64,000 nt of DNA from Candidatus Aminicenantes bacterium (GCA_963702005.1 OY969696.1:1504001-1568000); one strand, 5' to 3'. Shown: positions 4,497-61,255, counted from the stretch's first letter. Made by a program: numbers and translations. The notes: generated by a model not told the origin, from the sequence alone.

Positions 4497-5545
4497 ATGC
4501 TCTTCCGGATCGCCTCGGCCGCCCTGCTGGGGATCGACGCCTACCTCGTCGAGGTCGAGGTGGACGTCTCGGCCGGGCTCCCCCAGTTCGTGATCGTGGG
4601 GCTCCCCGACGCCGCGGTCCGGGAGAGCAAAGAACGCGTTCAGGCGGCCCTCAAGAACTGCGGTTACGAAGGGATGCCCTCCAAGGTCGTCGTCAACCTC
4701 GCCCCCGCCAATCGGCGCAAGGAGGGCTCGTCCTTCGACCTGCCCATCGCGCTCGGCCTGCTCGCGGACCTTGGCGTCGTGCCCTCCGAGCGGCTCCGCG
4801 ACCGCCTCTTCCTGGCCGAACTGGCCTTGGATGGGCGGCTTAAGCCCGCTCGGGGGATCCTTGCGGCTACGGTTCTCGCCCGGAGCAAAGGATTCCATGG
4901 CGTCGTCGTCGCCAAGGACAACGAAAAGGAGGCCTGCTTGGTGGGGGATGTCTCCGTCCACGGCCCGGAGAACCTTGTCCAGGTCGTCCGGCTTCTCCAG
5001 GACCCCGAGGCCGTGCCGCCGTCCCGGTTCGAGCGCGAGCTCCTGCCGGCTTCCGAAGACCATGACCTCGATTTCGGGGATGTCAAGGGCCAGACCCATG
5101 CCAAGCGCGCCCTCGAAGTGGCCTCGGCGGGGGCCCATAACGTCTTGATGGTCGGGCCGCCGGGCGCCGGGAAGACCATGCTGGCCCGGCGTCTGCCGAC
5201 CATCCTTCCTCCCCTGAGCTTTGAGGAGATCATCGAGGCGACCCAGATCTACAGCGCCGCGGGGCTCCTCCGGGACCGGGCCTGCATAGCGTCCCGGCCC
5301 TTCCGCGCGCCCCATCACACGGTCACGGACTCGGCCATGATCGGAGGCGGGGCGATCCCTCGGCCCGGGGAGGTCAGCCTAGCCCACCACGGCGTCCTCT
5401 TCCTCGACGAGCTCCCCGAGTTCCGGCGCCCCGTCCTCGACGGCCTTCGCCAGCCGCTCGAGGACGGCCGGGTGACGGTCAGCCGCGTCCTGCATTCCGT
5501 CACGTTCCCGGCGCGGTTCATGCTCGTCGCGGCCATGAATCCCTG
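4497..5545 (+). pseudogene. comM: ComM/YifB Mg-chelatase-like AAA+ ATPase, 5' part, interrupted by island
   Basis: [52 protein letters not shown], then abrupt switch to AT-rich DNA; rejoined to 61240-61711 gives a 1521-nt (506 aa) open frame. Confidence 0.93.
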
Positions 5546-7023
5546 TAGTTGCGTTGCTCAGTTGCCATCATTTTAGAAGATGAGGGAAGGTAGGCAAGAT
5601 GAATCGTGACGTCTTCCTTGCCGATAATGATCTTCTCGGTAATATTTTCTATGATTTTTCTTTTTTCTTCAGCGGTAAGCTCAGGCCAGCGGGAGTAGAG
5701 GTCTTTAGCTTCGGCCAGTATTTGATCACTAGAAAGGAATTGAATCTTCAAGAAATCTATCTCTCCTTGAAGATCGGGTATCCGAGTCTCAAGCTGTTTG
5801 ACTCTCTCTTCCAAGGGCTTATGATATCGTCCAAAGACTTCTACGGAAAGCTCGTTATTGATATAGGCTCGATAGAGCTTTTCCATCTCTGATTCGAGCT
5901 TCTTCTTTTCTTCGTTTATCGCCCGAAGTAGCTCTTCTTTTTCTTTGATCACATGATCGGCTTGGCTGAGGTAATTGGCTATCTCTTTAGGAGAGAAAAA
6001 GAAGGTCTTCAGCTGCTCATGAAAAATGTCTTCTAAATCCTTTTCTCCGATCTTGTTCCGGCACTTGTAGCAGATATATTTAGGAGAATTCGAGGGCACG
6101 TACATCTTATATTCGCACTGGCAGTAGACATGCCCGGTGAATAAGTGGACCGGCTTCCTGGCCGGTCTTTTATTGGTTTTTTCCTGCTCGTCGAGGATGG
6201 CGTTGCACTGATCCCAGAGCTCTTCAGAGATAATCGGTTCAACTTTTATATATACCCACTCGTCCGTGGGCTTGATGATCCGTTTTTTGCCCTTCTCCGG
6301 CGGTCCTTTTGTCCAGTTTGCTCGATGAAGACCCTTGGCTGTGGTGTCTTTTATAAGCCTTACAACCGTTGTATCCGAAAATTTATGGCCTCTTCTTGTA
6401 CGATATCCAGCTTCATTAAGCACCCGAGCGACTGTCTTTTTTCTTCTGTGTTCCAGGAAAAGCTCGTAGATTAGCTTGCGGAGAGGCGCTTCCTTGGGAT
6501 CCGGGATGAGCTTTTTTTCTTTCCATTGATAGCCAAAGGGAGCTTGTCCGCCAGTGGGTTTTCCCAGCTTAGCCCTGATTGAGACCGAAGCAGCTACTCT
6601 TTCGGAAATCTCTTCCCTTTCCCATTGGGCCATGGCTGCGATCATGGTGTAGAAGAGCCTGCCTGCGGGGGAGGAGGTGTCGATAGCTTCTTGGAGGGAT
6701 ATAAGGTCGACATTGTGTTCCCTGAAGATGTCAGCGAATTCAAGGAGTTCTTTGGTGTTTCTGGCGAGCCTGGCGAGCTTTGAAAATATCAAGGCAGTGA
6801 TATGGCCTGATTTGATATGTCCGAGCATTTTCTGGGTCTCGGGCAAGCCCATGACGGACTTTCCGCTGACAGCCTCAAGGTGATAGACCTCTTTAACCTG
6901 CCAGCCCTTGGATTCGGCGTAAAACCGGGCTCTTTTCTCGTGATGTTCCGGGCTTTCGCCCCTGGCCTGGTCTTCGGTCGAGACCCGAATCCAGATGCCA
7001 ACGGGCCTGGAGTTGACTATCAT
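5518..7023 (-). CDS. Large serine recombinase LSR1 (island integrase); C-terminus reads across attL
   Basis: [10 protein letters not shown] catalytic motif, [17 protein letters not shown], zinc ribbon CQC..CYKC, coiled coil. Confidence 0.93.
5525..5570. other. attL of comM island
   Basis: comM ..ATGAAT-CCCTG-TAGTTGCGTTGCTCAGTTGCCAT; the right arm is an imperfect inverted repeat of the arm left of attR. Confidence 0.85.
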
Positions 7024-7093
7024 TAGAATCCTGAAATATAGAAGTAAACCTGAGATTATTTTATTCCGAGTAGGCCTTTATATCAATTAAATC

Positions 7094-7354
7094 TCATAGA
7101 ATCGATGAACGATGCGAGCTATGAGAGGCATGAGAAGAATGCGAACCGTGATTGGGGCCGCTTGGGATGTTGCAGGCGGCCATGCCTAATTTTAAGATCA
7201 GTCCTTGATTTTTTTGAAGGCCACTTTTATTGAAATTAAGTAATCTGCTTTTTATCGGACTGCCAAAATCACCTGAGGGCATTTTGGAAATAGAAAATCC
7301 TAAAAGTACAAATAACGATAACAATCCTTTAAGAACAATTTTGAATATTTTCAT
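7094..7354 (-). CDS. hxsA: His-Xaa-Ser repeat precursor peptide (HxsA-like), 86 aa
   Basis: Ends HGSHSSHASHSSHRSS; hydrophobic N-terminus; GGGAG RBS before ATG 7354. Confidence 0.75.
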   Translation of the reverse strand: MKIFKIVLKGLLSLFVLLGFSISKMPSGDFGSPIKSRLLNFNKSGLQKNQGLILKLGMAACNIPSGPNHGSHSSHASHSSHRSSIL

Positions 7355-7575
7355 CTCCCTTAAGCTCCTTTTAGCAATTCTGTGACTACCAGGCACTTTC
7401 TTAGGAACTTCCTTATAGCGCCTGATCTCTGTTGAAATAAATATAATCGGGATATTCTTAATTGTCAAACACCTTTTTTCGTGTTTGTAAGCGTGAAGTT
7501 TGATAAAATAATATCACTATTTTTGGACGTGCCTTTAGTTTAGTATTAAATAAAATGAGGATTGGGGGAACAGGA

Positions 7576-8385
7576 ATGGAGAAAATTAAGAAAAAAGTCT
7601 ATGCGCTTGTCGAGGTCGTTTCGCACAAAGATCTCATAACTCGTAAGTTCGATGTTTTCGATATCTTCATTATCGTTTTAATTGTCTTGAATATTCTTGC
7701 TGTAATCCTCGAAACCGTAAAAGGTATATATAACTCAATTCCACAGCTGTTTAGGTATTTTGAAATATTCTCGATAATAGCTTTTACGATTGAATATACG
7801 CTCAGGGTTTGGACTTGTACGGTCAACGAAAAATATAGAAATCCTATTACCGGGAGAATTAGATTTGTTTTGTCTCCTCTTGCCTTGGTCGATTTATTTG
7901 CTTTCTTGCCGTTCTATATCCCAATGATCATCCCTTTCGACCTGAGATTTCTGAGAGCTTTCAGATTATTGAGATTGATCCGCGTTCTTAAGATCGGAAG
8001 ATATTCGGAAGCGGTCAAGCTCTTCGGTCGAGTACTAAATGCTAAAAGGGCCGAATTATTTACAGCGATATTCGTCATTTTCGTGCTTCTGATCATATCT
8101 TCGAGCTTGCTATACTATATCGAGCACGAAGCGCAGCCGGATAAATTTTCAAGTATTCCCGAGGCAATGTGGTGGGGCGTAGTCACTCTGACGACCGTAG
8201 GCTACGGAGATATCTATCCGATTACACCTTTCGGAAAATTCATAGCGTCCGTCATTAGCCTTTTGGGCATAGGCTTGTTTGCTATGCCCGCAGGTATCTT
8301 GAGCGCGGGGTTTGTTGAAGAGATTAAAACAAAAAAAACGGCACGGGATAAATGCCCTCATTGTGGGGTGGACTTGAACGATTGA
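7576..8385 (+). CDS. Voltage-gated potassium channel family ion transporter
   Basis: TLTTVGYGD selectivity filter; S4-like RFLRAFRLLRLIRVLK. Confidence 0.9.
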   Translation: MEKIKKKVYALVEVVSHKDLITRKFDVFDIFIIVLIVLNILAVILETVKGIYNSIPQLFRYFEIFSIIAFTIEYTLRVWTCTVNEKYRNPITGRIRFVLSPLALVDLFAFLPFYIPMIIPFDLRFLRAFRLLRLIRVLKIGRYSEAVKLFGRVLNAKRAELFTAIFVIFVLLIISSSLLYYIEHEAQPDKFSSIPEAMWWGVVTLTTVGYGDIYPITPFGKFIASVISLLGIGLFAMPAGILSAGFVEEIKTKKTARDKCPHCGVDLND

Positions 8386-8449
8386 AAAAAGACGAAATGA
8401 AGAATAAAGTCCGAGATAGGATGATGAATAAGCGTAAGAGTAATCGGCA

Positions 8450-10129
8450 GTGACTCTAAATCCTTTTGAAGTGACGGGCATTTTCTTTTTCGGAAGCCTG
8501 GTTCTCGGATTTGGTTATTTAACGATAAACAAATACACAAGAAATGTATTCAAGAAGTATTGGAAAATCATCATCATCTTGATCTTGGTCAACATTGCTA
8601 TGAAGATTCCTTATAAATCGTATTTCTTTGATGGCTTGGAATATGAAGACTCTTATATCTACAAGGCTTCAGCCAGGGCACTCTATGAAGGAGAATACGA
8701 ATTCTCAGCTATCAACCCTTACTATCCGACATCTTGTATTTGTGGGAGTCTGAAAGACTGCCGAATGTCAGGGATTTTTGTTACGAACTTTTTAGGCTAT
8801 CCATATCTCATTAATCTCGGCTATCGCCTTTTTGGCTATCAGATAAATATCGCCAATATCGTTTCGCTGTTATTTTCGGGGATATCGATTGCTTTTTTAT
8901 TTACAGCGGCCCTTCTCATAATAGACAAGCTTCTTTTTGCCCTTATCTGTTGTTTTATCTATATCACGATCCCCATATTCAACGTATATGCTTCGACTTC
9001 GCTGACCGAACCATTGTCCAACGCCTATCTGATCCTAATACTTCTGCTATGTCTGACATTTATGAACCCGGACATAGAAGGAAAAAGAGTTCAATTTCAA
9101 AATATCCTTGGATTATCTGCTATTGTCTTCAGCCTGATATTCTCGATTCTGGTAAAGACCACCAATATATCTTTGGTCGTCTGTCTGCCGGTTGCCGGCC
9201 TGATATCTTTGGTGGCCGATAAGAAGATTAAAGATAAATATCAGAGGAACAGGCTCTTGATCTTTCTTTCGGTCATCTTTCTTGTATTTTTATTCAGCGC
9301 CCTGGTATTGAAATTTCAGGCGGCGGTTGAAATCAATAGAGGAGATATCGGGGCAAATCCCTTCTCACTTTCGTATTTTAAATCCCTGGCCCCGGTATTT
9401 GTTAAGTCTTTCTTTGATTTCCAATGGTATTTAGTCTATACGATATTTTTCCTTACTGGAATCGTTTTTGGGTTGAAAGAGAAGAACGGAATATTACCGA
9501 TTATTGTTTTTGTCTTCTACTTCGTTTTATATACGGTCCACTATCGGAGCTATTATTTTACACGGGGCCTTCCTGTGATGAAGGATGAAGCCCTGAGATA
9601 TATGACGAGCATCGTTTCGGTATACTCGCTTATTGTCGGTCTTGGCATTTATTATCTCTGGCGCTCGATCAAAAAAGCAACGACGAATAGCCAGGTAAGG
9701 CTTTTTGATAAATCATTAATCGCTTCGCTGCTTGTTATTATTCTGGGCGTATCTGTGTTCTTCACGCTCAAATGCCGAGCTCATTTCGTAGAAGACGAAC
9801 AAAACGTTCGAGTTGCACCAGTGATAAAAACCTTAGATTATTTATCCACCAAAGACGATGTCTTGATTACTTCCGAGCATGTTCTCTTCCAGATATACGG
9901 AAACGCTAATCTCAGGCTTATCGATTTCTGTTCCATTGGCACCCTAATTTCTAAAGAAGGAATCGATAGCCTGATTAGATCAGCTAGTGTCTATTACCTG
10001 GAAACGATATCCCGGGACAGCTTGGATGAAAAACGGTATCGACCGCAACTGCAATATCTCGATTCAAAGAGGAAAGAACGTGTTTATTCCGGTCAGGATT
10101 TCAGAATCTTTCGGTTGTTACCTGAGTAG
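8450..10129 (+). CDS. Polytopic membrane protein, possibly GT-C/ArnT/PMT-like glycosyltransferase
   Basis: Many TM segments; acidic YEDSYIY loop after first helices; LTEPL; RY motif late in protein. Confidence 0.5.
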   Translation: MTLNPFEVTGIFFFGSLVLGFGYLTINKYTRNVFKKYWKIIIILILVNIAMKIPYKSYFFDGLEYEDSYIYKASARALYEGEYEFSAINPYYPTSCICGSLKDCRMSGIFVTNFLGYPYLINLGYRLFGYQINIANIVSLLFSGISIAFLFTAALLIIDKLLFALICCFIYITIPIFNVYASTSLTEPLSNAYLILILLLCLTFMNPDIEGKRVQFQNILGLSAIVFSLIFSILVKTTNISLVVCLPVAGLISLVADKKIKDKYQRNRLLIFLSVIFLVFLFSALVLKFQAAVEINRGDIGANPFSLSYFKSLAPVFVKSFFDFQWYLVYTIFFLTGIVFGLKEKNGILPIIVFVFYFVLYTVHYRSYYFTRGLPVMKDEALRYMTSIVSVYSLIVGLGIYYLWRSIKKATTNSQVRLFDKSLIASLLVIILGVSVFFTLKCRAHFVEDEQNVRVAPVIKTLDYLSTKDDVLITSEHVLFQIYGNANLRLIDFCSIGTLISKEGIDSLIRSASVYYLETISRDSLDEKRYRPQLQYLDSKRKERVYSGQDFRIFRLLPE

Positions 10130-10169
10130 AAGGAAATTATTCGTAAGGATATTGTAAAGGAGAATTCAG

Positions 10170-10493
10170 ATGTCTGAGGAAGATAAGATCGAAATCAAAA
10201 TCGACCTATCAATTTACGATAAAGTGGCCACATTGAAGACCTGCTATGTTTTTCAGGATAGGTTTTATACTAGCCTTGAAACAGAGGTTGGATCCATTGC
10301 AATCGTTAAGCTGATACCTAAAAAAGAGTCAATTGACCTTGAAGAGATCGAAAAGCAGTTTAAAGATGAACTGATTGATCAACAAATTAGATTAGAAAAC
10401 GAAAAACTATTTTCCGAAATCAGAAAACTGATCGTCGAACAGGCATTCAAACCAATAAGCTATCCGGAGTTTAAAGCAAATATTGGGAAATGA
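10170..10493 (+). CDS. hxsD: His-Xaa-Ser system protein HxsD
   Basis: Short protein ending FKDELIDQQIRLENEKLFSEIRKLIVEQAF; directly upstream of hxsB. Confidence 0.8.
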   Translation: MSEEDKIEIKIDLSIYDKVATLKTCYVFQDRFYTSLETEVGSIAIVKLIPKKESIDLEEIEKQFKDELIDQQIRLENEKLFSEIRKLIVEQAFKPISYPEFKANIGK

Positions 10494-11953
10494 AATTTAA
10501 TAATCTGGCCTACACGATTCTTCCTTTTCGGTTCATGAGGTTCGGGCCTGATGTGCTGATTATCAATGAAGCTGGAGGATACGGTTTTCTATCCGGCAAA
10601 GACTTCAACCGGTTTATAAATTATCAGCTGGACCCGAAAGAGGACGTATTCTTGAATCTGAAAAATAGGCACATTGTAACTGACACAGACCTGGCGCTTC
10701 CAGTTTACCTTTTAGCTACCAAGTACAGAACGAAAAAAAGTTATTTATATGATTTCACGGCCCTGCACATTTTCATTATCACCCTGCGCTGCAGTCAAAA
10801 ATGCCGGTATTGCCAAGCGAGCAGTGAGGATGAAGCCCAGCTCGGATTTGATATGAGCGCAGAAATAGCAAAGAAGTGCGTTGATCTGGTTTTTCAGTCT
10901 CCTTCGCCGGCAATAAAGATTGAGTTCCAAGGCGGGGAGCCGCTTCTCAATTTCGAGGCGGTTAAATATGTTGTCAAATACGCGAAGAAACTCAATGGGG
11001 TGTATCGGAAGAATCTCGAATTCGTCATCTGCACCAATCTATTAGGACTAAATAAAGAAATTCTGAATTACCTCGCGGAACACCAAATATGGATTTCCAC
11101 TTCTTTGGACGGGCCGAGAAACTTGCACGATGCCAATCGAATAACTAGAAAAGGCACAGGGACATATGACGTGGTTAGAAATAATATCCGGCTAGCCCAG
11201 GACAGGCTCGGGATTGAGAGAGTTTCTGCGCTTATGGTCACTACGAGAGATAACGTTCATAAACTGAATGATGTTGTTGATGAATATATCGATCAAAGAT
11301 TCAATTCAATTTTTATCCGAACCATCCATCCTTATGGAAGGGCAGCCAAAGAAAAACTCGGCTGTGACGTTGAAGCCTTTATCGAGAATTACAAAAGAAC
11401 CTTGGATTACATAATCAGGCTTAACCTTGATGGAGTGATGTTTTCTGAGCAATATGCCACGATCATTCTAAAAAAGATATTAACTCCATTCGCCACGACG
11501 TTCGTTGATCTTCAATCTCCGGCTGGAACCGGAATCAGCTGCGTCGTCTACGGTTATAACGGCGATGTCTTTGTCTCTGATGAGGCAAGGATGCTCTCCA
11601 AGATGGGCGACAACCGGTTTATGATGGGAAATGTTTATAAAAACAAATATCAAGAAATATTTAAGGGCAAAGTTATTCGGGAAACCGTGGAAAATTCGTG
11701 CGTTGAAAACATGCCTCTTTGTTCTGAATGCGCTTTCCAGTTGTATTGCGGCGCTGATCCTGTCCGGAACTACAGCATGCAGGGTGATCTCATGGGACAC
11801 CGGCCCACTTCCGAATTCCATCAAACCAATTATCTGATTATCCGTCATTTAATAGAACTTATTAAACAAAACGACCCGGAGATCATGAACGTCTTTTGGT
11901 CATGGATCACAGCCCGGTCGATTGAAGAGATTAAGGGATCAAAAAGAGGATAA
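10490..11953 (+). CDS. hxsB: His-Xaa-Ser system radical SAM maturase HxsB
   Basis: LPFRF N-terminus, LHIFIITLRCSQKCRYCQAS, IKIEFQGGEPLLNF, VDLQSPAG, SDEARML, CGADPV. Confidence 0.9.
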   Translation: MKFNNLAYTILPFRFMRFGPDVLIINEAGGYGFLSGKDFNRFINYQLDPKEDVFLNLKNRHIVTDTDLALPVYLLATKYRTKKSYLYDFTALHIFIITLRCSQKCRYCQASSEDEAQLGFDMSAEIAKKCVDLVFQSPSPAIKIEFQGGEPLLNFEAVKYVVKYAKKLNGVYRKNLEFVICTNLLGLNKEILNYLAEHQIWISTSLDGPRNLHDANRITRKGTGTYDVVRNNIRLAQDRLGIERVSALMVTTRDNVHKLNDVVDEYIDQRFNSIFIRTIHPYGRAAKEKLGCDVEAFIENYKRTLDYIIRLNLDGVMFSEQYATIILKKILTPFATTFVDLQSPAGTGISCVVYGYNGDVFVSDEARMLSKMGDNRFMMGNVYKNKYQEIFKGKVIRETVENSCVENMPLCSECAFQLYCGADPVRNYSMQGDLMGHRPTSEFHQTNYLIIRHLIELIKQNDPEIMNVFWSWITARSIEEIKGSKRG

Positions 11954-11957
11954 TAAT

Positions 11958-13094
11958 TTGCGGCAGCTAAGTGGAATACCTTTGAATTCCAGGGCTAGGA
12001 TAATAGGGAAAATATCCAAAAACTCCGCTCAAACAAAGGAAATAAAGGACTGCATTCTTGTGACTGAATCAATTGAAAAGAGGATTAAGAGATTTAAGGC
12101 CATCTTATGCTTAGCTGCCATCGAAAAAACGACAGCTGAGCGGCTCAAAACGCCGATTGTTCATGGCGTTGAGAATATCGAAGCCTTAAGCGAGGGCGAT
12201 ATTGTCATCGTTGATATGGTAACCGGAGAGATTATTGTTGTTTACGAAAAGAACTCCGTTCACAATTCAATCCTCGCTTCAACGGACTGCAATTGCCGCT
12301 GTATCATGTGCCCTCAATCCTTGGTCGAGGATTCGCCGGAGAACCTTAAGAACAATATAGAAATCATCAGATTGATCGATAAAAACACCAAGGCTTTGGG
12401 AATCACAGGCGGAGAGCCCCTGATCCTGGGAGACGGCTTAATCAAGCTTTTAAAGGAATGCAAGAGACTATTGCCCGAGACTCAAATTCAGATTCTGACG
12501 AACGGGACATTGTTAAAAGATGATGCTTATATCAGACGCATAACCCTGCTGAGGCTGAAGAAACTGATTTTTTGCATTCCACTCTATGCTGATACAGATA
12601 GAGAACATGATTTCATAATGCAACGGAACGGCGCTTTCGAAGACACGATCCAGGGATTATATAACCTTGCGGCCAGAAAGCAGCTGGTCGAGATCCGAAC
12701 CGTTGTCATGTCGCTTAATTATCGGCGACTCCCTCAAATTGCCGAATTTATTTACCGTAATCTACCTTTTGCTATCCACGTTGCCTTTATGGGCATGGAA
12801 GTCGAGGGTCAGGCAAGAAAGAATATCCAGAAGCTCTGGGCCAGCCCTGTTGAATACGCGCCCTACTTGAAGGAGGCCGTCATTTATCTTTCGCGACAGA
12901 ATATGGATGTTTCGATCTATAACGAGCAATTGTGTTTGATGCCCAATGAGATATGGAATTTTATGCGAAAATCAATTTCCGAGTGGAAAAATACATACTT
13001 AGAAAAATGCAGCTGTTGTAGGGCTAAAAATGAATGTGCGGGCTTTTTCGCCCAACCGGTAGAGGAGCATAAACGCCTTATCAAGCCCCTCTGA
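11958..13094 (+). CDS. hxsC: His-Xaa-Ser system radical SAM maturase HxsC
   Basis: CNCRCIMCPQ, GITGGEP, RKSISEWKNTY..CSCC..CAGFF; probable TTG start at 11958 after AGAGGA (ORF track starts 11922). Confidence 0.88.
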   Translation: MRQLSGIPLNSRARIIGKISKNSAQTKEIKDCILVTESIEKRIKRFKAILCLAAIEKTTAERLKTPIVHGVENIEALSEGDIVIVDMVTGEIIVVYEKNSVHNSILASTDCNCRCIMCPQSLVEDSPENLKNNIEIIRLIDKNTKALGITGGEPLILGDGLIKLLKECKRLLPETQIQILTNGTLLKDDAYIRRITLLRLKKLIFCIPLYADTDREHDFIMQRNGAFEDTIQGLYNLAARKQLVEIRTVVMSLNYRRLPQIAEFIYRNLPFAIHVAFMGMEVEGQARKNIQKLWASPVEYAPYLKEAVIYLSRQNMDVSIYNEQLCLMPNEIWNFMRKSISEWKNTYLEKCSCCRAKNECAGFFAQPVEEHKRLIKPL

Positions 13095-13175
13095 ATCTCC
13101 ATAATAAGGGACGGTGAAAAATTATCCTTGACTTCTGGAAACGATTCGGATAATTTTTGGACTGAGGGGATTAAG

Positions 13176-16279: not shown

Positions 16280-16282
16280 ACC

Positions 16283-52763: not shown

Positions 52764-53046
52764 TTAGCAGTTTAATCTATGAGTGTCCAACATATGATTA
52801 TATCGGCAAAGCTAAATGAGATATAAAACTACATGAAATATGTAATCACGTGCAACCTGAGAATAGCTGATTAACTTTTTTACCTAAAATGTCGAAATTC
52901 ATCGTTAAAGGCTATCCAGCGCCAGGAGGCGGGGCTAAGCAGCGATTAATTTGGACGAAAAATGTCCACTCACTGAATTAAAGCCAAGAAAGAAGATAGT
53001 TATATCGCAAAAATGAATTCATAGTCCATAGATTTGAGGAGGGGGA

Positions 53047-54942
53047 ATGAGCCATATTGCTTCAAAGGAAAGTAAGTTAGAAAAAATACTGAATTACTTA
53101 CTCGAAGGTTTCCAGATTATTAGATTTGACTGGCGCTATTTATATGTCAATGATGCCGTTGCCAGGCAGGGGCGTATGACAAAGGAAAGACTGCTGGGCA
53201 AAACAATGATGGAAGCATATCCGGGAATAGATAAAACGCACATGTTCAGTGTGCTCAGAAGATGCATGGAAGAACGGACTTCAGCTTTTTTAGAAAATGA
53301 ATTCACTTTTCCAGACGGCTCTAAAGGTTGGTTTGAACTCAGAATGGAGCCCGTGCCAGAAGGTATTTCTATACTCTCTATTGAGATTAGTGAACGCAAG
53401 AAAGCGCTGGAAAGAAACGAGGAAATCGGCGAGCGATACCAAACGCTATTTGGCCGTTCAATGGACTGTGTCTATCTTCACGATTTCGAAGGAAGATTTA
53501 TCGATGCCAATCGTGCTGCTTTAGATCTCTTGGGCTACAGTATTGGGGAGTTTACATCTCTTAATTTTGCGTCTTTATTGACTCCAGACCAAATTCCAAC
53601 GGCACTTAAAGCCATAGAAGAAATTAAGAGAATTGGTTTCCAGAAAGATGTATCTGAATTTAGATTAACTAAAAAGAATGGCGAAAACATTTTTGTAGAG
53701 ACTAATGGATCTCTTATATATCGTGAGGGTCAACCTTATGCCATCCAAGGAATCGCCAGAGATATCACCAGCAGAAAGAAGATGGAAGATGAGTTAAGAA
53801 GGGTCAATCGTGCGCTCAAGACACTCAGTAAGTGTAACGATTCTGTAATCCGTGCTACAGATGAGAAATGTCTGCTGCAGAGCATCTGTAGAGATATTGT
53901 CGATATCGGAGGATATCGTTTAGCCTGGGTCGGATTCGCTGAACACGATGAAAAGAAATCTGTTCGGCCCATAGCTCAAGTCGGATATGAAGAAGGATAT
54001 ATCGAAACTTTGAACATCACGTGGGCAGATACAGAGCGGGGTCGAGGCCCGACCGGCAGGGCTATAAGAAAAGGCAAGCCTTCCATTGCCAGAAGAATCT
54101 TAACCGATCCCGATTTTGAGCCATGGAGAAAAGAAGCAGCAAAGCGGGGATATGCCTCATCTATCTCTCTTCCTTTATTCGCCAATGGCCTGTGCTTTGG
54201 AGCATTGAATATTTACTCTGTCGAACCGGATGCCTTTGACGATGAGGAAGAAAAGCTTCTTATAGACCTGGCGGATGATTTGGCCTATGGCATTGTTACG
54301 CTCCGCATGCGGGCTGAAGGAAAACGGGCAGAAGAAGAACTAAAGCATACGCTCGAAATGCTACGAAAAACTCACGGAGCGACTATTCAAGCCATCAATA
54401 GGATAGTTGAAAACAGAGATCCCTACACAGCCGGCCATCAAAGACGCGTCGCCGATCTTGCCCGGGCCATCGCCACTGAAATGAATTTATCAAGGCATAC
54501 CATCGATGGAATACGCGTTGCTGCCCAACTTCATGATCTAGGAAAAATATCTGTTCCATCCGAAATTCTCAGTAAGACGGGCAAGCTAACTGAAGCTGAA
54601 TATAGCTTGATAAAAAATCACCCCAAAGTTGCTTATGAAATATTGAGGACCATTGAATTCCCCTGGCCGATCGCTGATATTATTCTGCAGCATCATGAAA
54701 GAATGGATGGTTCAGGATACCCCCTGAGCTTAGCTGGTAATGATATATTAATAGAGGCAAGAATAATCGGGGTGGCTGATGTTGTTGAAGCAATGGTTTC
54801 TCACCGTCCCTATAGACCCGCCCTTCAATTAGAGGATGCTCTTAATGAAATATCTCAGAAGAGCGGCGTATTATATGATCCGAACGTGGCAGACGCTTGT
54901 ATAAGGCTTTTAAAAGAAAAAGATTTTCATTTCAGGGCATAA
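53047..54942 (+). CDS. PAS-PAS-GAF-HD-GYP phosphodiesterase
   Basis: DPYTAGHQRRV, LHDLGK, QHHERMDGSGYP, SHRPYR. Confidence 0.92.
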   Translation: MSHIASKESKLEKILNYLLEGFQIIRFDWRYLYVNDAVARQGRMTKERLLGKTMMEAYPGIDKTHMFSVLRRCMEERTSAFLENEFTFPDGSKGWFELRMEPVPEGISILSIEISERKKALERNEEIGERYQTLFGRSMDCVYLHDFEGRFIDANRAALDLLGYSIGEFTSLNFASLLTPDQIPTALKAIEEIKRIGFQKDVSEFRLTKKNGENIFVETNGSLIYREGQPYAIQGIARDITSRKKMEDELRRVNRALKTLSKCNDSVIRATDEKCLLQSICRDIVDIGGYRLAWVGFAEHDEKKSVRPIAQVGYEEGYIETLNITWADTERGRGPTGRAIRKGKPSIARRILTDPDFEPWRKEAAKRGYASSISLPLFANGLCFGALNIYSVEPDAFDDEEEKLLIDLADDLAYGIVTLRMRAEGKRAEEELKHTLEMLRKTHGATIQAINRIVENRDPYTAGHQRRVADLARAIATEMNLSRHTIDGIRVAAQLHDLGKISVPSEILSKTGKLTEAEYSLIKNHPKVAYEILRTIEFPWPIADIILQHHERMDGSGYPLSLAGNDILIEARIIGVADVVEAMVSHRPYRPALQLEDALNEISQKSGVLYDPNVADACIRLLKEKDFHFRA

Positions 54943-55012
54943 TGATGAGCTGCGATATATGAGAGCTACAATTGCAAGTGTTAAACAAAGTTCGCGGCAC
55001 AAATTAAATAGA

Positions 55013-55265
55013 CTATTTTAAAGATGTCATAAAAAAAGTAATTGTATCTGAAGGCTTCTTCGCAGGCTTATGTAAGTTTCTCTCCCACCCCGCAAGTGTC
55101 GTTGGATCAACTCCCAATTGCTCCGCCATCTTTTTCTGTGTCAGCCCGTGAACCCGCCGATATTCACGAATCCTTTCTCTTAAATTATCTGTCTTTATTT
55201 CGAACGGATCACGTCCCAGAGATTCGATTATTTCCGGAATTTGAGCCAAAGAGGCTTGAACTGTT
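55013..55265 (-). pseudogene. XRE-HTH relic homologous to 60789-61232
   Basis: SLAQIPEIIESLGRDPF..IREYRRVHGLTQKKMAEQLGVDPTTLAGWE. Confidence 0.75.
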
Positions 55266-55524
55266 TGCATGGTTTGAGGCAAATTGGGAGCACATAAAGG
55301 ACATAGTGGAGCGAACGGTTTTGATTTGGCTGCGTCCCTGGAACGTCCCCGGAATTCTGGGATCCCAGGTCGTTCTCTGCGCACAAAGGTGCCGGCTGTT
55401 AGCAAAAGGGGGGTTTTGATGGGAACCATCAAGGTGGGGGCTTTCTCCAACCGGCGAAAGAAAGCCATAAATATTATATCACAAGTCCGCGTGAAGAGGG
55501 TGAAGTCCGAGCCTCATCACGTGT

Positions 55525-55750
55525 CTATTCTTCAGGCGAAGAAAGATAGGTTTCGAGCTTTTCAAATAGCCTATTCGTGGGCCGATGCTCCCCTCTCTCC
55601 CACCCTGCCAGAGTTGTCTGATCGACCCCCAACTGTTCAGCCAACATCTTCTGGGTCAGCACATGAACCCGCCGGTATTCTCGAATCCTTTCTCCCAGAT
55701 TCTCTGTTTCTTTCTCAAAAGGGTCGCGGCCCAGAAACTCGGTGATCTTG
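55525..55750 (-). pseudogene. XRE-HTH relic homologous to 60789-61232
   Basis: KITEFLGRDPFEKETENLGERIREYRRVH..LGVDQTTLAGWERGEHRP. Confidence 0.75.
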
Positions 55751-55774
55751 GTGACGCTGAGGTCCACAAGTGAT

Positions 55775-55925
55775 CACGGGAGAGTCGTTCTTCCCAAAGG
55801 GTCTTACGATAGCGGGCGTTTTACGTAGTGATGCAAACAACGGTGAAGAACCGGCTCCAGGCGTTTTTGGCCCAGCAGGGGGAAGAGATACGCTCAGAGG
55901 TATCGCGGGTGGAGAACCTTCCCGC
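55775..55925 (+). pseudogene. IS110-like transposase fragment
   Basis: SQRVLR*RAFYVVMQTTVKNRLQAFLAQQG resembles the IS110 R..LV..T..KNR motif; contains a stop. Confidence 0.4.
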
Positions 55926-56005
55926 CCCTCAGACATACGACATATTCCCGCTGACCTCCAAAAACATCATGGCGGAATGGAGGGCAGACCAGGAGAGCGA
56001 TCGTT

Positions 56006-57382
56006 TTATACGTTCTTTATCCTGAGCTTTGAAACCTTGCTTTCATTGAGAACAATGGGTATTCCTTTTATCCTTCCATTTCGCTCAATGGTCACATCAA
56101 CTTTTTTGCCCCATTTGCCATTCATAATGTCTTGCCTGATTTTGTTAAACTCAGGGATGCTCTTGATGGTCTCTTTTCCCACCTTAATGACCCGATCATT
56201 AACTAATAAACCGGCGTTTTGAGCGCTTGAACCATAAGATATCCAATTCACATAAAACTTCCCTTCCTTTTCGTAAAGATCAAATGAAAAATCTAGGACG
56301 ATCTCTTCAAATGGTTCCAATTGATCAAGCAGGGAAAGAATTTCGGGGAAAAAGGATTCATAGGTGGGGAATTTCGACCTATTCTTTTCGTAATCACCCA
56401 ATTTTTCGTAGATAAAAGGGATGAGCAGAAAGGGAGTGTGTCCTCCCTCCCACTTGTCTTTGGGTGTCTGTCTCGTGACGTATTTATAGATTCTTGTCGT
56501 TGCCGCTCTGACAATATTCTCATTCAGACAGCTTCCCCATGTGGGATAATAAAGCTTCGTCATCACGTCATCTTGGTTTAACGTTTTGAATAGCCATTCT
56601 CTCTTGGCCACTTCAGATTGAAATTTGGCGGTGACGGGGTTGACGAACGAATGGCCAAATTCGTGGATGGCTCCACCGATCAAATCCTTGCCACTCGTCT
56701 GGTCATAGCTGGCTGAATCCGGGGGGACAGGCGTCGGGCTGATGACAGAATATCTGACCTTATGTTCTTCAAGTTCAGGGGACCCAAACAAGAATCCGGC
56801 TGGAGTGAGGAACGAGACATAGATATTAAATCTAAATTCTGGCTTAGATTGACCAAAATAATCTTCAAGGGGCTTTCTTACCGAAATTTGAGCAATCTCT
56901 TGATTAAACCTTTCAGCTACTCTCGCGTACTCATTGACGTGTTCTTCCCAGAATTTTTCAAAATGCGTGTCTTGATAAAAGTCTTTCACCGCCTTGGCAA
57001 AGTCCTCCAGAATCTTAGAATTACCAATTTCCAGGCCAATGTTCTGCGGAAATTTGCTGACGGTGAGGTCAGAAATGCTCCGGAACGAAAGGGCAAGGCC
57101 AGGGAAACGATCCAAGAAAATGTGATCGAGAATTTCGTCGGCTATCTGAACGGCTTTGTGATTTTTGTAGGATTCAAAGTATTCTAGGGCACTCCTTCGG
57201 ATAGGATGGACAAATTGGGCTTGTTGGGAACTGCCGTGGGGAGTCAGAATTCCAATACAGGTGAGCAATTCTATGCGTTCATCAAAGCTCACCACCACTT
57301 CATTTTGGGAATGGCCAGAGATCGTCATGAAAAATATCAGGAATACTAGAAGAGTTAAAATATGCTTGCTTTGCTTTTTCAT
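56006..57382 (-). CDS. Secreted DUF4932-like HExxH protein with C-terminal PDZ
   Basis: DERIELL, HEFGHSFVNP, ENIVRA; SSAQNAGLLVNDRVIKV..VTIERNG. Confidence 0.75.
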   Translation of the reverse strand: MKKQSKHILTLLVFLIFFMTISGHSQNEVVVSFDERIELLTCIGILTPHGSSQQAQFVHPIRRSALEYFESYKNHKAVQIADEILDHIFLDRFPGLALSFRSISDLTVSKFPQNIGLEIGNSKILEDFAKAVKDFYQDTHFEKFWEEHVNEYARVAERFNQEIAQISVRKPLEDYFGQSKPEFRFNIYVSFLTPAGFLFGSPELEEHKVRYSVISPTPVPPDSASYDQTSGKDLIGGAIHEFGHSFVNPVTAKFQSEVAKREWLFKTLNQDDVMTKLYYPTWGSCLNENIVRAATTRIYKYVTRQTPKDKWEGGHTPFLLIPFIYEKLGDYEKNRSKFPTYESFFPEILSLLDQLEPFEEIVLDFSFDLYEKEGKFYVNWISYGSSAQNAGLLVNDRVIKVGKETIKSIPEFNKIRQDIMNGKWGKKVDVTIERNGRIKGIPIVLNESKVSKLRIKNV

Positions 57383-57509
57383 CCACTCAATATATTATTT
57401 TATATCATAATGATATTTAAAAGCATTATATTATTAGTATAAAATAATACCTCCAGGCAGTGTCAACTCTTATTCGCAATTTCGGGGGCCGAGGAGCCAA
57501 AAAGGTTAG

Positions 57510-57716
57510 TGAAAATAAGCAAGTAATTTGGCCAAATTATCAACAAGTTTCTTCGAGGGCTGATGTTCTCCTCTTTTCCACCCCGCTAGGGTCGATTCCG
57601 ATTTGCTCGGCAAATATTTTTTGCGATACCCCATGAACCCGTTGATAATCCCGAATCGTATCTCGTAGGCTTCTTGAAGTGACCTCAGACGGATCGCGGC
57701 TCAGGAATTCGATCAT
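57510..57716 (-). pseudogene. Degenerate XRE-HTH relic
   Basis: Own translation: IEFLSRDP..IRDYQRVHGVSQKIFAEQIGIDP / frameshift / LAGWKRGEHQP. Confidence 0.65.
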
Positions 57717-57859
57717 AAGGCAATGATTCCTTAGCTCGATTTATTTCTTATAGATGCATCTCTGGTGTGGACCTCCTTGATCTAAATGCAAGCTATTAGG
57801 TAACTTTTTTCTTATAAAAAGAGTCTTATAAAGGAGAAGATATTATTAGGAGTCACGCA

Positions 57860-59848
57860 ATGCGAACCAGGCCGCTCATTTCTATATTGTTTATTTTTCC
57901 TGGGGTGGAAAATATAGGCCCGATAAAGCAATTGCATTCCATAATGAGGCGAATTCTCATTTCTATCATGCTTTTAATATCCAGTTTAAATAACCCAGGT
58001 ATTTGCAAAGATCAAAAACCGTGTTCGATAAAATCTCATAATCTTAAGATAGAGTTTAACTCCGATATTCATGAGATGAGAGTAGTCGATAAAATCTTTT
58101 TATCTGAAAATTGGAATAAGAATTCTCCTTTCCTAGCTAAAATTGACTCTCTCTTCTTGATTTCCAGCATTTGTTCACAAGAAGGAAGGCCCGTGGCCTA
58201 TAAATATCAAGACGGCAAACTTGAAATACCGAGTCTGGCTGGAATGGAGAGCTTCACTGTCGAATATTCGGGCGTTCTTAATACGGATTTGAGAAGCGAT
58301 CCCTTTGCCAAAGTGGCTGGTTCATTTTATCTTCTGAAGGAGCTCGATTGGATTTTTACTCCTGCGGGCACTGAAGCAGAAAAGGCCGTTATGGAGTATC
58401 GTATTCCTAAGGAATTTGACATCATCACAGAAGGTCACCCGGTCAGTGAAAGGGTCATAGGCGACAAAAAAATAAGCGTCTGGGAAGTGGATGGGTGCGA
58501 ATCGTGGTTGTACTGCATGATAGGCAAATGGCATAAGACGAACAGGAAAGTCGGTCAATCTGAAGTTAGAGTCTGGCTGGCCTCCCATAAACCGGAATTG
58601 GCGGAAAAGCTTGTTGAAACAATAGAGAAAATCTTCTGTTTCTATTCAGAGATCTACACTGCTTATCCGCGTCCCGACTTTACTTACCTGGAATTTCCAA
58701 ACGATTATGCGGCCTGGAATGGCTATCTGAAAGTGGTTTTTATGCGCGAATCCGCAACTTGGGGAATTCCAGACGATATTGAATTTGTGGCCCACGAGAT
58801 AGCTCATAACTGGTGGCCCAACTACATCGGTTTGAAAAGGGATGAAGAACTCGACCTTGATGGCGAAGCGTTTTGTGACTTTTCTGCCGCGCTGGCCAAT
58901 GAATTTCTGTTCGGCTCAGTAAAAAAGCAGGAACGTGCAAAAGAATTGGTATGGTTCATGGCCTATCCAGAAGAGAAATATCGAAAAGGCAAGTTTCTTC
59001 TGCACAATCTTAGACTGATTTATGGGGATAAACTATTTTTCAAGTGGGTTAAAGACTTTTCTGAAAGATATAAAGGAAGAAGAACAAGCACAGAGGATTT
59101 CTTTGCTATGGCTCCTCGGAAAGAAGGATTTGATTTGAATGGATTCCTGGCAACTTGGAAGGAGGTTAAGATCCTTCCTGTTTTCGAGCTACAATATGAT
59201 AAAAAGAAAATGAAATCGGGAAACCGGTATGAGATAACGATAAGTATTCATCAACAGCCGAATCCGCCGATTATTGGGTGGCATATCCCCGTTCTTGTTC
59301 GCTCAAAAGACACGGAAGTTCAGAAACTCGTGGAATTAACTGGGGAAGTTACAAAAAGTCGCTTGGAGACGGAGTTTGAACCTGAAGAGGTTTTGCTCGA
59401 TCCAAATTATATAATTCCCAGGCGAGTGCCAGAATTTCAAAAGTATGCCGAAGCCCTGATTTTAATAGACGCCAAGGCATTCCCGCTTATCTTCAAGAAG
59501 AATTTTCAAGACTGCCTCCCCTTTCTATTTCAGGCCCTGGAACTGGACACGGAAAATGCCGAAACACACTACCTCATCGGGAGGGCATACAAGAATCTTA
59601 ATCAGCCAGACAAGGCAAAAGAGTTTTTTTCCACGGCGACTGCCAAAATCCTTGGCTGGTATATGGGGAATCGTTACACGACGGACCAGCTCCATGTTTA
59701 TTCTCTTTGGGAATTGGCCCAGATCTTTCTCAAAGAAGGGAATTATGCTTTAGCTCGGAAAAACCTCGAAGCGATATTAATAAAGCCCGACATTGAAGGT
59801 TATCACGCAAAAGCATCAGATGAGCTAAAGAAGATCAAGAATATCTAA
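57860..59848 (+). CDS. M1-family metallo-aminopeptidase with C-terminal TPR
   Basis: AHEIAHNWW..GEAF, YRKG..LHNLR, LDPNY, TPR helices. Confidence 0.8.
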   Translation: MRTRPLISILFIFPGVENIGPIKQLHSIMRRILISIMLLISSLNNPGICKDQKPCSIKSHNLKIEFNSDIHEMRVVDKIFLSENWNKNSPFLAKIDSLFLISSICSQEGRPVAYKYQDGKLEIPSLAGMESFTVEYSGVLNTDLRSDPFAKVAGSFYLLKELDWIFTPAGTEAEKAVMEYRIPKEFDIITEGHPVSERVIGDKKISVWEVDGCESWLYCMIGKWHKTNRKVGQSEVRVWLASHKPELAEKLVETIEKIFCFYSEIYTAYPRPDFTYLEFPNDYAAWNGYLKVVFMRESATWGIPDDIEFVAHEIAHNWWPNYIGLKRDEELDLDGEAFCDFSAALANEFLFGSVKKQERAKELVWFMAYPEEKYRKGKFLLHNLRLIYGDKLFFKWVKDFSERYKGRRTSTEDFFAMAPRKEGFDLNGFLATWKEVKILPVFELQYDKKKMKSGNRYEITISIHQQPNPPIIGWHIPVLVRSKDTEVQKLVELTGEVTKSRLETEFEPEEVLLDPNYIIPRRVPEFQKYAEALILIDAKAFPLIFKKNFQDCLPFLFQALELDTENAETHYLIGRAYKNLNQPDKAKEFFSTATAKILGWYMGNRYTTDQLHVYSLWELAQIFLKEGNYALARKNLEAILIKPDIEGYHAKASDELKKIKNI

Positions 59849-59906
59849 TTGTTTGATCCGCTAGCGTATAGCAATGTTTGCTCTAGAGGAGGAGCGATCG
59901 TAGACT

Positions 59907-60058
59907 CTGGAAACCGGCTTTTTTGTCCTTAAGGCTAAATAGCAGAAAAGCATCACGACCCTGCGAGGAGGTTCTGCGTGCGCCGGGACGATCCGGAAAG
60001 GTCCGGGGCGACTCGCGGACGCGTACTGGCCGCCCGCGAGCGTCAGCTCCGCCGATTC
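59907..60058 (+). repeat. Degenerate second attR plus collapsed comM 3' relic
   Basis: 59907-59978 aligns without gaps to 61183-61254 (CCCTG at 59959); 60027-60058 matches comM 61434-61465. Confidence 0.85.
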
Positions 60059-60100
60059 TGCATGTGATATAATATCTTGGGAAGCGAGTGGGTAGTGGAC

Positions 60101-60643
60101 ATGAGAAAAAGAGGATTGTTTTCAGCCGGCCTCATCCTTTTCCTGTGGGCCGGACTCCTGGCCCCCGCTCCGAACGATTTTCCTAAAAAGACGCCAGGAA
60201 AGGAGCAGCCGCAACGGCCGATATTTTATGCCCTCCAGGTCGTTTGCGAAAAGGACGTCCAAAACTCAAGAGATTCGCTGGGTGCGCCGGATGGCCGCTC
60301 TGCGGAGATCCTTCCGGGCGGCGGGCTCGTCGTGCTCATGGAGAAAAAGCTTTATCCCTTCCCGAGTTCCCCCTCGCCGGAGGGAGAAGGAGGACTGGCG
60401 GAAAGCGGCTCAGTAGTTGGCAAAGGAGGGCCGGACTTCATCCTCGAAGGCTGGTTCCTAGTACAGGATACGCAGGCCAAGCACCGCTATGTCTGGGTGC
60501 CTCTAGGATTGTCGGCGGGCGGCTTTTGCGTCGGGCTTGAAGGCAGTGAGGGTGTGAACATGATCAGGATCACGAACCCAGGCAACAAATCCTTGTTTGT
60601 GGACGCCGTAGTCGGACGCGGCAGGGAAACACAAGGAAGATAG
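60101..60643 (+). CDS. Hypothetical secreted protein
   Basis: Signal peptide MRKRGLFSAGLILFLWAG. Confidence 0.6.
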   Translation: MRKRGLFSAGLILFLWAGLLAPAPNDFPKKTPGKEQPQRPIFYALQVVCEKDVQNSRDSLGAPDGRSAEILPGGGLVVLMEKKLYPFPSSPSPEGEGGLAESGSVVGKGGPDFILEGWFLVQDTQAKHRYVWVPLGLSAGGFCVGLEGSEGVNMIRITNPGNKSLFVDAVVGRGRETQGR

Positions 60644-60788
60644 AAGGCACTAGCCGCCCTTGCCAGCGGCACCCTTGACTTTCCCGCGCTCGAGGATGCC
60701 AAGAAGAAGCTGGCGGCGCTGAAGTGAATGTGATTTCTTCATAGGGACTTATAGCCGCATCGAGATTATCTACCATCCCAAGCCTCGA

Positions 60789-61232
60789 TTAAATTTGAGT
60801 TTGAAATAGCTCAATTCCGGTCAATTTTTCAAGAAACCTTTTCATCGGCCGATGCTTCCCTCTCTCCCATCCCGCCAACGTCGTCTGATCAATTCCTAAT
60901 AGAGTAGCAAATTTCTTCTGCGTCAGCCCGTGGATCCGCCGGTATTCCCGAATCTTTTCGCCTAAATTCTCTGTCCTTTTCTCAAACGGATCGCAGCCAA
61001 GGAACTCGATAATCTTAGGAATCTGGGCTAGAGACGGCTGGACTCGGTTCTTTTCCCAAAGATATATCGTGAGGTCCGAAACATTAAGCTTTAGGGAAAG
61101 TTGGCGCTTGGTGAGCTTCAAATCAATCCTTCGGGCTCTAATCCAGTCGCCCCACGTCTTCATAAAATCAGGGTATTTCTCCCTGGAAACCGGCTTTTTT
61201 GCCTTTAAGGTTAAATGGCAGAAAGGCAACAC
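60789..61232 (-). CDS. Tandem XRE-HTH domains; predicted C-terminal part of LSR1 after excision
   Basis: Two HTH repeats (IRARR..LWEKNR; IREYRR..GWERG); frame begins at attR. Confidence 0.8.
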   Translation of the reverse strand: MLPFCHLTLKAKKPVSREKYPDFMKTWGDWIRARRIDLKLTKRQLSLKLNVSDLTIYLWEKNRVQPSLAQIPKIIEFLGCDPFEKRTENLGEKIREYRRIHGLTQKKFATLLGIDQTTLAGWERGKHRPMKRFLEKLTGIELFQTQI

Positions 61233-61255
61233 AACCCTGCGAGGAGGTCCTGCGC
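61212..61255. other. attR of comM island
   Basis: ATGGCAGAAAGGCAACACAA-CCCTG-CGAGGAGGTC (comM resumes CEEVLRG). Confidence 0.85.

Follow-up and report, generated by a model that had tools for sequence, protein, structure and literature searches.

What becomes of a serine integrase when the attachment site of its element lies inside its own gene? The question is raised by a 55.7 kb island that interrupts comM, a Mg-chelatase-like AAA+ competence gene, in a Candidatus Aminicenantes bacterium. The DNA analysed, referred to below as the window, is a stretch of 64,000 nt (GCA_963702005.1 OY969696.1:1504001-1568000), and all positions are counted from its start. The gene for a large serine recombinase (LSR) lies at one end of the island and an open reading frame (ORF) for two helix-turn-helix (HTH) domains at the other. 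An initial annotation of the window had claimed that excision would fuse the two into one LSR-HTH-HTH gene. Serine integrases are valued in genome engineering as simple, one-way tools, and how their one-way behaviour is tuned in nature is an active question.

The divided gene and its attachment site

The features that define comM, the island and the two parts of the integrase gene are as follows.

4497..5545, plus strand: comM 5′ fragment (Pfam Mg_chelatase E = 6.9e-77, ChlI E = 1.5e-42)
5518..7023, minus strand: integrated (short) LSR of 501 aa (Pfam Resolvase E = 4.4e-31, Recombinase E = 4.2e-18, weak Zn_ribbon_recom E = 0.0012)
5541..5545, no strand: attL core CCCTG, a direct repeat of 61235-61239, with the probable crossover dinucleotide TG at 5544-5545
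5546..5568, minus strand: P half-site of attP, coding strand ATGGCA..GCAACGCAAC, which encodes ..MATEQRNY of the LSR and mirrors 61215-61237
5546..61234, no strand: integrative island, 55.7 kb, low G+C (from composition and Pfam analysis of 58 ORFs)
60789..61232, minus strand: HTH part, an ORF of 147 codons with two HTH_3 domains (E = 4.7e-22)
61215..61237, minus strand: P′ half-site of attP, coding strand GTTGTGTTGCC..TGCCAT, which encodes VVLPFCH and is the reverse complement of the P half-site
61235..61239, no strand: attR core CCCTG, with the probable crossover TG at 61238-61239
61240..61711, plus strand: comM 3′ fragment (Pfam Mg_chelatase_C E = 1.4e-35)

The island is set off from its left flank by composition, with a G+C content that is mostly 0.27-0.55 compared with 0.57-0.65. 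The 5′ fragment of comM ends ..AAMNP followed by the TG of a Cys codon, and when the two halves were joined at CCCTG by excision in silico an open frame of 506 codons was obtained. We note that comM as restored here has ..AAMNPC-EEVLRGLAGTGVEC.. at a position where five other genomes carry the usual NPCPCG motif; the length is unchanged relative to that motif, but the Cys pattern has diverged.

The integrated LSR (ORF 5518-7023) borrows its end from the host gene: its last seven residues (DSWPRRA), as the initial annotation had stated, and its stop come from antisense comM. Closing the island to a circle at CCCTG gives ..EQRNYR-VV-LPFCHLTLKAKKP.., which is in frame with ORF 60789-61232. The virtual fused frame, ..EQRNYRVVLPFCHLTLKAKKP.., spans the LSR start to the HTH stop as a single ORF of 642 codons, so that the 642-aa LSR-HTH-HTH protein proposed earlier is reproduced by the in silico excision; indeed, every sequence statement of the initial annotation was found to be correct. 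The HTH ORF begins with a linker of ~25 residues (LPFCH..KP....YP), which is followed by two Cro/CI-type HTH domains. After integration this part of the gene faces antisense comM, lies 55.7 kb from the LSR and is without the LSR promoter. On the sequence and the comparisons set out below, we regard it as highly probable that attP lies within an LSR-HTH-HTH gene, the long form of which belongs to the unrecombined element and the short form to the integrated one. The layout is also a pitfall for annotation: a 'recombinase' and an 'XRE regulator' at opposite ends of comM islands are the separated parts of a single gene.

The virtual attP reads ATGGCA-N5-GCAACGCAAC-TA-CA-GG-GTTGTGTTGC-N5-TGCCAT on the coding strand. 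Its symmetry is limited to +/-24 bp, giving a site of ~50 bp, and it is the strongest dyad of the 1929-nt virtual gene: 15 of the 24 positions in its arms are paired, compared with a mean of 5.9 (standard deviation 2.2). The attP sites of relatives (n = 8, comprising six contiguous and two virtual sites) follow the pattern GGCAAC(G/A)CAAC, 3 nt, CA, 5 nt, GCGTTGCC. The central dinucleotide is CA on the coding strand in all eight of these aligned sites, and CA is likewise found on both the attL and attR sides in each of the 19 pairs of island ends that passed an automatic rule. The crossover dinucleotide is most likely to be the TG (5544-5545 and 61238-61239) within CCCTG, which is CA on the coding strand of the LSR. 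A short dyad attP with a central dinucleotide, an attB formed by the MNPC codons of comM and hybrid attL and attR sites together make up what appears, at the sequence level, to be a regular LSR attachment system.

The crossover TG opens the codon for the first Cys in the AAMNPC(PCG) motif of comM. This motif was seen intact in five of the seven uninterrupted comM genes inspected; the other two were missed by the motif search. As a Cys codon must start with TG, this dinucleotide is an unusually stable target, and a family aimed at the TG of a Cys codon in a near-universal comM motif is of interest for broad-host-range integration.

Because the two half-sites are reverse complements, they translate as paired peptides, ..QRN.. 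with ..(V/A)LP.. and MA.. with ..CH. The peptide at the junction is therefore a coding shadow of the attP palindrome. It had been considered as a protein motif and was rejected as such, since it mirrors the palindrome.

Related contigs from four sequencing runs were also inspected. Some bridge attR and two end exactly at position 61235. An attP or attB junction for this genome was not present in the contigs of these runs, no available run having more than 0.21 of the sampled words, and this result counts neither way.

Relatives and the reading frame across attP

A protein search returned 6409 sequences with E <= 0.001 among 7998 scored candidates, of which the best 120 (69-87% identity) were examined. 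The LSR is 492-521 aa long in 108 of these, and most end QRN.R[DG]S(W..A), which corresponds to the tail contributed by antisense comM; the tails of integrated copies in this set finish ..RRA, ..PPA or ..RPA. Eight of the 120 (P0071, P0086, P0102, P0103, P0104, P0107, P0110 and P0116) are natural LSR-HTH-HTH proteins of 635-656 aa, having HTH Pfam domains and the junction QRNF-IPA-LPFCH(V/I)(S/T)LKA. Proteins of this kind, carrying the junction peptide, are those which the initial annotation had proposed should be sought. The remaining outliers in length are P0041 (541 aa), P0051 (432 aa), P0059 (621 aa) and P0068 (464 aa).

A scan of ~185,000 species representatives (one genome per species) yielded 345 relatives, and the best 80 loci, with 61-80% identity, were kept. 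Their assemblies are labelled Acidobacteria, Bacteroidota, Planctomycetota, Armatimonadota, Elusimicrobia, Patescibacteria, Proteobacteria, Firmicutes and others, and all relatives come from metagenome assemblies. The 3′ end of the LSR abuts the 5′ part of antisense comM at 49 of the 80 loci and is contiguous with an HTH module at ten; comM 3′ sequence lies downstream in the sense orientation at two, other sequence follows at 16 and three loci run up to the end of their contig. Seven of the ten genomes with a contiguous locus have a comM frame of 514-542 aa without interruption. With the same query comM was not found in the other three, the assemblies of which are small or incomplete. In the unrecombined gene, as represented by the eight natural proteins and seven intact contiguous loci, there is no stop before that of the HTH part; the long protein is therefore the only product of that frame.

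The other end of the island was located in the genomes in which comM is interrupted. In four of five such genomes the HTH module adjoins the 3′ part of antisense comM, and joining the ends at the central CA gave an open LSR-HTH frame in all four pairs. The HTH-module profile also matched all of 25 further genomes. Usable matches in 22 of these provided 24 paired loci (G021, G025 and G036 gave partial HTH matches only and were left unpaired), at 21 of which the HTH copy abuts antisense comM 3′. Each of the 24 pairs was again open when joined at the central CA; 19 passed the automatic rule mentioned above and five were resolved using the half-site motifs, giving ORFs of 624-654 codons. Both island ends were thus recovered in 26 genomes, and all 26 restore one open frame at the central dinucleotide. 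The initial annotation had staked its reading beforehand on the frame across attP being kept in related comM islands, and in this set it is kept without exception.

Three features of the alignments bear on why the frame is kept. The length of the linker varies by whole codons only (11 aligned sequences). In G038 and G040 the end of the LSR and the start of the HTH part both read the half-sites in another frame (..GKATKL-H-GRVAMLSFGR..), and the fusion is still in frame. Across 41 sequences, conservation reaches 90% or more at linker residues P3, P14 and Y20-P21, all of which come before every candidate for an internal start. Since the insertions and deletions are whole codons, the frame has changed on both sides together and the linker is conserved, these comparisons argue for selection on the frame across attP beyond mere inheritance. 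On the proteins, loci and frames described here, the layout is a trait of the family and not a matter of chance.

We note that the LSR identity of 61-80% extends over assemblies of more than a dozen phyla, with a mean column identity of 76% in 45 proteins. Conservation of this degree is unusual over such a spread and suggests either recent and very broad horizontal transfer or strong constraint. We also note that G025, which has an LSR inserted in comM (L041), contains another locus, L131 (G025:C73:1-1620), in which the LSR runs into the start of an HTH module and then meets the contig end. This may be a second, unrecombined copy or an excised form present in the same sample.

Two proposed integrase forms and their possible roles

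The short form has the composition of a complete LSR. The catalytic domain (PF00239, E = 4.4e-31) covers residues 10-155, and 45 LSR sequences show no variation at S15 (catalytic), R13 or the LARLARN block. The recombinase domain is clearly matched (PF07508, E = 4.2e-18); the zinc-ribbon match (PF13408, 0.0012) is weak and below the curated cut-off, and C301, C303, C318 and C321 are invariant in the same 45 sequences. In the model of the natural fusion P0104 long helices at residues 326-447 are flanked by strands, as in the coiled coil of a zinc-ribbon domain. Residues 461-507, which run from the last part of the zinc-ribbon domain through the joint and the linker, have a predicted local distance difference test score (pLDDT) of <50, and the predicted template modelling score (pTM) of the whole model is 0.33. 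attP is thus predicted to be encoded in a disordered, flexible tether just past the last folded domain of the LSR, and in this model the short form keeps all of the folded LSR domains.

The HTH module was modelled with AlphaFold2 as two helical sub-domains (pLDDT 89.2, pTM 0.75), each of which appears to have the five-helix Cro/CI fold. Fold matches, each to a single domain, were obtained to P22 c2 (root-mean-square deviation 1.8 over 60 columns) and 434 Cro, with weak Foldseek E values (5.5e-3 at best); no two-domain analogue of the pair was returned by the fold search. The ratio of nonsynonymous to synonymous substitution rates (dN/dS) is 0.16-0.27, both for the island copy compared with its two closest relatives and among the three closest inserted copies. 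On the basis of these ratios the module is judged to be functional and under purifying selection. A complex prediction for LSR residues 1-494 with the HTH module scored 0.31 compared with a mark of 0.32, was made without controls and counts neither way on binding.

Sequence and comparison together show the following layout. In the unrecombined element the comM-specific LSR is encoded as one LSR-linker-HTH-HTH protein of ~640 aa. Integration cuts the gene after ..QRN(Y/F), so that the inserted element encodes the complete LSR core (501 aa) with a comM-derived tail of seven residues, and it strands the coding sequence of the linker and the HTH pair at the opposite island end, where the integrase promoter no longer reaches it. 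There would then be two integrase isoforms, set by the state of the element. As the HTH pair is a Cro/CI-type module on a flexible linker, the long form is predicted to make DNA contacts which are out of reach of the short form. The activity of the module would stop automatically once the element has integrated, and the element would in this way sense its own integration. Candidate activities are operator binding (in autoregulation or establishment) and extra contacts which favour attP x attB. In our view the combination of this layout, two isoforms and a regulatory or accessory DNA-binding activity tied to the state before integration is likely to be correct; any particular function for the gain or loss of the module is considerably less certain than the combination. 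The family would be a natural case of an integrase that is built from different domains depending on the state of its element, and it provides a natural pair of isoforms that can be tested.

The initial annotation had also proposed two isoforms, short when integrated and HTH-bearing when circular. The gene structure that this requires is supported by the natural fusions, by the occurrence of the fused form together with uninterrupted comM and by the conserved frame, but a circle as the only state of the long form is contradicted by G012. There, a single contig of 302 kb carries both a fused gene and, 105 kb from it, an intact comM, and the G+C content shifts just past the HTH stop; this element may have entered the chromosome by another route, perhaps by means of a second recombinase.

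The G012 locus is one of several observations that weigh against the interpretation we prefer. Terminal overlap was found in none of five fused-gene contigs of 55-91 kb. The double-HTH fusion is intact at only seven of the ten contiguous loci: L067 is frameshifted at the joint, L063 (the genome of which bears an 'unpublished' flag) is truncated and L028 has an interruption ~50 residues in. The junction peptide is conserved through the conservation of attP and says nothing for a function of the protein. Within +/-300 bp of attP no symmetric or repeated 9-mers were found besides the site itself and one unrelated pair, and the 160 nt before the LSR start share no conserved sequence in 15 loci that might represent an operator. 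RNA, protein or attP/attB junction reads were not obtained for this genome. Finally, a free HTH protein may also act here. Codon 24 of the HTH ORF is an ATG (Met24, 61161-61163), and beyond the island there is a further copy of the module.

63771..64000, running to the equivalent of 64091, minus strand: stand-alone HTH-HTH paralogue outside the island, 72% identical to the island copy

This paralogue starts at the ATG equivalent to Met24, with a stop 18 codons upstream and without the P′ half-site, and its dN/dS compared with the island copy is 0.13. It is the Met24 codon, together with a paralogue that starts there and is under purifying selection, which makes a free HTH protein conceivable.

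The same two facts support an explanation in which the fusion has no functional consequence, the HTH pair being a free regulator and read-through from the LSR being tolerated as attP happens to sit between them. In its favour as well, a search with the HTH ORF gave stand-alone calls of 140-230 aa for most of the best 150 representatives, and several relatives have arrays of unfused full-length HTH modules. These calls mostly begin at the attP-encoded LPFCH, however, which is what gene callers give on integrated copies; the search for longer proteins with the HTH ORF returned no match, which reflects a limit of the word index, as fused forms exist. Fusion is moreover unavoidable in the unrecombined state, given the missing stop. 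No conserved start codon for the HTH part was found among the relatives compared: in four relatives the place of Met24 is taken by L, C, L and L, and the sole shared start candidate is a TTG within the half-site. The linker that precedes Met24 is conserved at the protein level, with insertions and deletions of whole codons and a subclade in which the frame shifted on both sides together. We therefore consider this explanation quite improbable. That the database fusions are misassemblies of attL with attR, and the frame in the window a product of chance, is scarcely credible. The relatives do all come from metagenome assemblies, but fused genes turn up in many phyla and many separately made assemblies (eight protein clusters and ten loci) and accompany uninterrupted comM in seven of ten genomes, the shared core of 2-5 bp is too short to drive misassembly, and the cultured Paenibacillus phage Harrison has Resolvase, Recombinase, Zn_ribbon and two HTH_3 domains in one gene of 695 aa. 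These observations already contradict an artefact.

A further possibility is that the tethered HTH pair sets the direction of recombination, being needed for, or biasing towards, attP x attB, so that its loss would lock the element in place or alter attL x attR. The pair might contact flanking DNA or the recombinase, and the state of the gene, not only a separate factor, would then determine direction. It fits this proposal that the module exists only up to integration and is lost through that very event, and that in the P0104 model a flexible linker of ~45 residues lies beside the zinc-ribbon/coiled-coil domain. Engineered fusions of integrases with directionality factors do change direction. 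According to the available part of 10.1101/2025.05.02.651858, the zinc-ribbon/coiled-coil domain controls direction in the serine integrases that have been studied, but the same source indicates that these enzymes are already one-way without such an added domain. Arm-type sites were not found in the +/-300 bp that flank attP, and the short form retains every folded LSR domain. On balance we think a role in setting direction rather unlikely. The stronger form of the idea, in which the gene, by splitting itself, serves as an inbuilt sensor of integration and determines what the recombinase is capable of, strikes us as doubtful; to the same degree, we doubt that the full-length form performs, or perhaps represses or limits, attP x attB in a naive cell while the truncated form differs in site preference or direction. 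If it were true, direction control in serine integrases would not rest only on a separate directionality factor, and this would hold for a family found in over a dozen phyla and directed at a single invariant Cys codon in comM. The preferred interpretation remains that of two isoforms with a DNA-binding module that is available before integration.

Parts of this arrangement have counterparts elsewhere. TnpX of Tn4451/Tn4453 is an LSR with state-dependent expression, in which circularisation creates a promoter at the joint; there the joint alters transcription, whereas here it would alter the encoded protein. The initial annotation had likened the island to SSV1-type split integrases and to mycobacteriophages with attP in the repressor gene, and both comparisons are apt as descriptions of how the system works but fail as statements of membership. 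SSV1-type integrases belong to archaeal viruses and are of the tyrosine class, and division of their gene on integration disrupts the enzyme. In the case described here the catalytic and DNA-binding folded domains stay whole and only an added C-terminal module is removed; a tyrosine catalytic unit is not divided, the crossover lying instead in a segment with pLDDT <50. For the fuselloviruses, attP is given as 'within the integrase gene' in the portion of PMC8371274 that we draw on. In the integration-dependent immunity of mycobacteriophages BPs and Brujita, and in Bifidobacterium prophages, attP lies within a gene near its 3′ end and the free form of the product is the longer one, as here, the prophage form being shorter and having different properties; in the BPs/Brujita type, as would be the case here, the element reads out its own integration state (PMC6109161, in part). 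Those systems use a tyrosine integrase and split the repressor gene, whereas here a serine integrase is used and its own gene is split; what is lost there is an 18-residue ssrA-like degradation tag and here a folded double-HTH module of ~120 aa (same part of PMC6109161). A tyrosine integrase with attP in a repressor gene, which defines integration-dependent immunity, is not what we find.

The target gene itself is familiar. Durrant et al. (2022) report Mg-chelatase/ATP-dependent protease homologues as the targets of 12.4% of predicted site-specific LSRs, and competence genes as enriched among LSR targets (PMC10083194). The target gene is thus the same as here, but neither attP within the LSR gene nor isoforms are described in the main text, as far as it was available, and 'helix-turn-helix', 'C-terminal' and 'within the LSR' each occur zero times in it (PMC10083194). 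In Wolbachia prophage WO of the sr1WO group a serine recombinase at one prophage end integrates into the Mg-chelatase gene and HTH_XRE regulator genes are found at the opposite (3′) end, giving an outer anatomy like that of the present island (PMC9203015). WO is a tailed phage, however, the accessible sections of that paper make no mention of a recombinase-HTH fusion across attP, and the likeness is one of description only. The integrase gp44 of the Paenibacillus larvae phages Harrison and Paisley (695 aa) has the same domain order as the natural fusions and comes from a cultured temperate phage. The Harrison integrase is only 23% identical to P0104, and its HTH part is not discussed in the available text of PMC6070908. 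In a dyad scan of its gene, two of the three best dyads lie in the linker, with 14 of 24 positions paired, which is within the range of chance. We found no literature that describes an attP within the gene of a serine integrase, or isoforms of the LSR-XRE kind, a statement that does not extend to supplements such as the att-site tables of PMC10083194. comM as an LSR target and attP within a gene in tyrosine systems are known already; the present case works like the latter, except that the split gene is that of the serine integrase itself.

Island content and further copies of the HTH module

Among the 58 ORFs of the island, Pfam analysis identified a backbone of DUF932, TrwB/TraG-like ATPases, a PD-(D/E)XK nuclease, a second LSR and an HTH_36 protein, which is common to the 30-kb comM island of G001. 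The cargo includes an ion channel, two radical-SAM genes, a metallo-beta-lactamase fold, a branched-chain amino-acid ABC transporter, IS200-like, HigB and SocA toxin-antitoxin genes, a PAS-GAF-HD protein and peptidases. Capsid or type IV secretion genes were not seen among these ORFs, relatives were absent from 2.9 million viral contigs, and none above 31% identity was present in 72,556 plasmids or 50,697 phages. We take the element in comM to be integrative, and possibly mobilisable, and not a prophage. We note the following smaller features of the cargo.

20884-21327: IS200-like Y1 transposase
30512-31039: SocA/Panacea, an antitoxin-domain protein
31748-33266: HigB toxin, which adjoins an M78/IrrE-like peptidase protein
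39229-39825: fragment of a tyrosine integrase, 198 aa

Midway along the island there is another large serine recombinase.

35035-36648, minus strand: second LSR of 537 aa (Resolvase, Recombinase, Zn_ribbon_recom), kept in the G001 island

This enzyme could offer an alternative route of integration, which might explain the chromosomal fused LSR-HTH gene beside an intact comM in G012.

Beyond comM, a PAS-HD protein (61864-63675) and the stand-alone HTH paralogue fill a block of 2.3 kb with a G+C content of ~0.40 that extends from the end of comM to the next host gene. The block runs from 61864 to a jump in G+C at ~64150 in window-equivalent coordinates, and it mirrors a unit of the island in which PAS-GAF-HD (53047-54942) is associated with HTH remnants. 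It is probably the relic of an older related element. The HTH remnants of the island are as follows.

55013-55468 and 55525-55767, minus strand: two truncated copies of the HTH module with the second HTH only (tblastn, 67-73% identity)
57540..57716, minus strand: third decayed remnant of the HTH module (tblastn and ORFs)

Each extra copy in the window, that is the three decayed copies in the island and the intact copy outside comM, follows a convergent cargo gene.

A stretch of 27 nt in the HTH ORF, CCGGTTnnnAGGGAGAAATACCCTGAT (61166-61192, minus strand), ends 3 nt before the Met24 ATG and shows no synonymous change in the window, the paralogue, G001 and G002, whereas dS elsewhere in the module is ~1. 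It holds the palindrome CAGGG-N7-CCCTG, and more distant relatives are without it. The stretch might serve as an operator, form an RNA hairpin or act in ribosome binding.

Several relatives contain two to six full-length HTH modules a few kilobases apart on one strand (L109, L133, L134, L136, L126 and L124); G018 has four (G018:C4:123149-146189). The central CA and P′ half-site are still there in the internal copies, but the sequence upstream of them is neither comM nor a P half-site. The three internal copies of G018 are 93-97% identical and have 145 nt of upstream sequence in common. Accretion of attR-type ends and cassettes are both possibilities for the origin of such arrays. If the gene were indeed an integration sensor as set out above, free modules that keep the P′ half-site could serve as competitors, as immunity factors against relatives or as alternative C-terminal cassettes.

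Searching with the HTH ORF also brought up a group of long, poly-XRE proteins (P0122, P0124, P0125, P0130, P0211 and P0236) with 4-13 matched HTH stretches; P0124, for example, has 11 HTH_3 stretches in 1002 aa.

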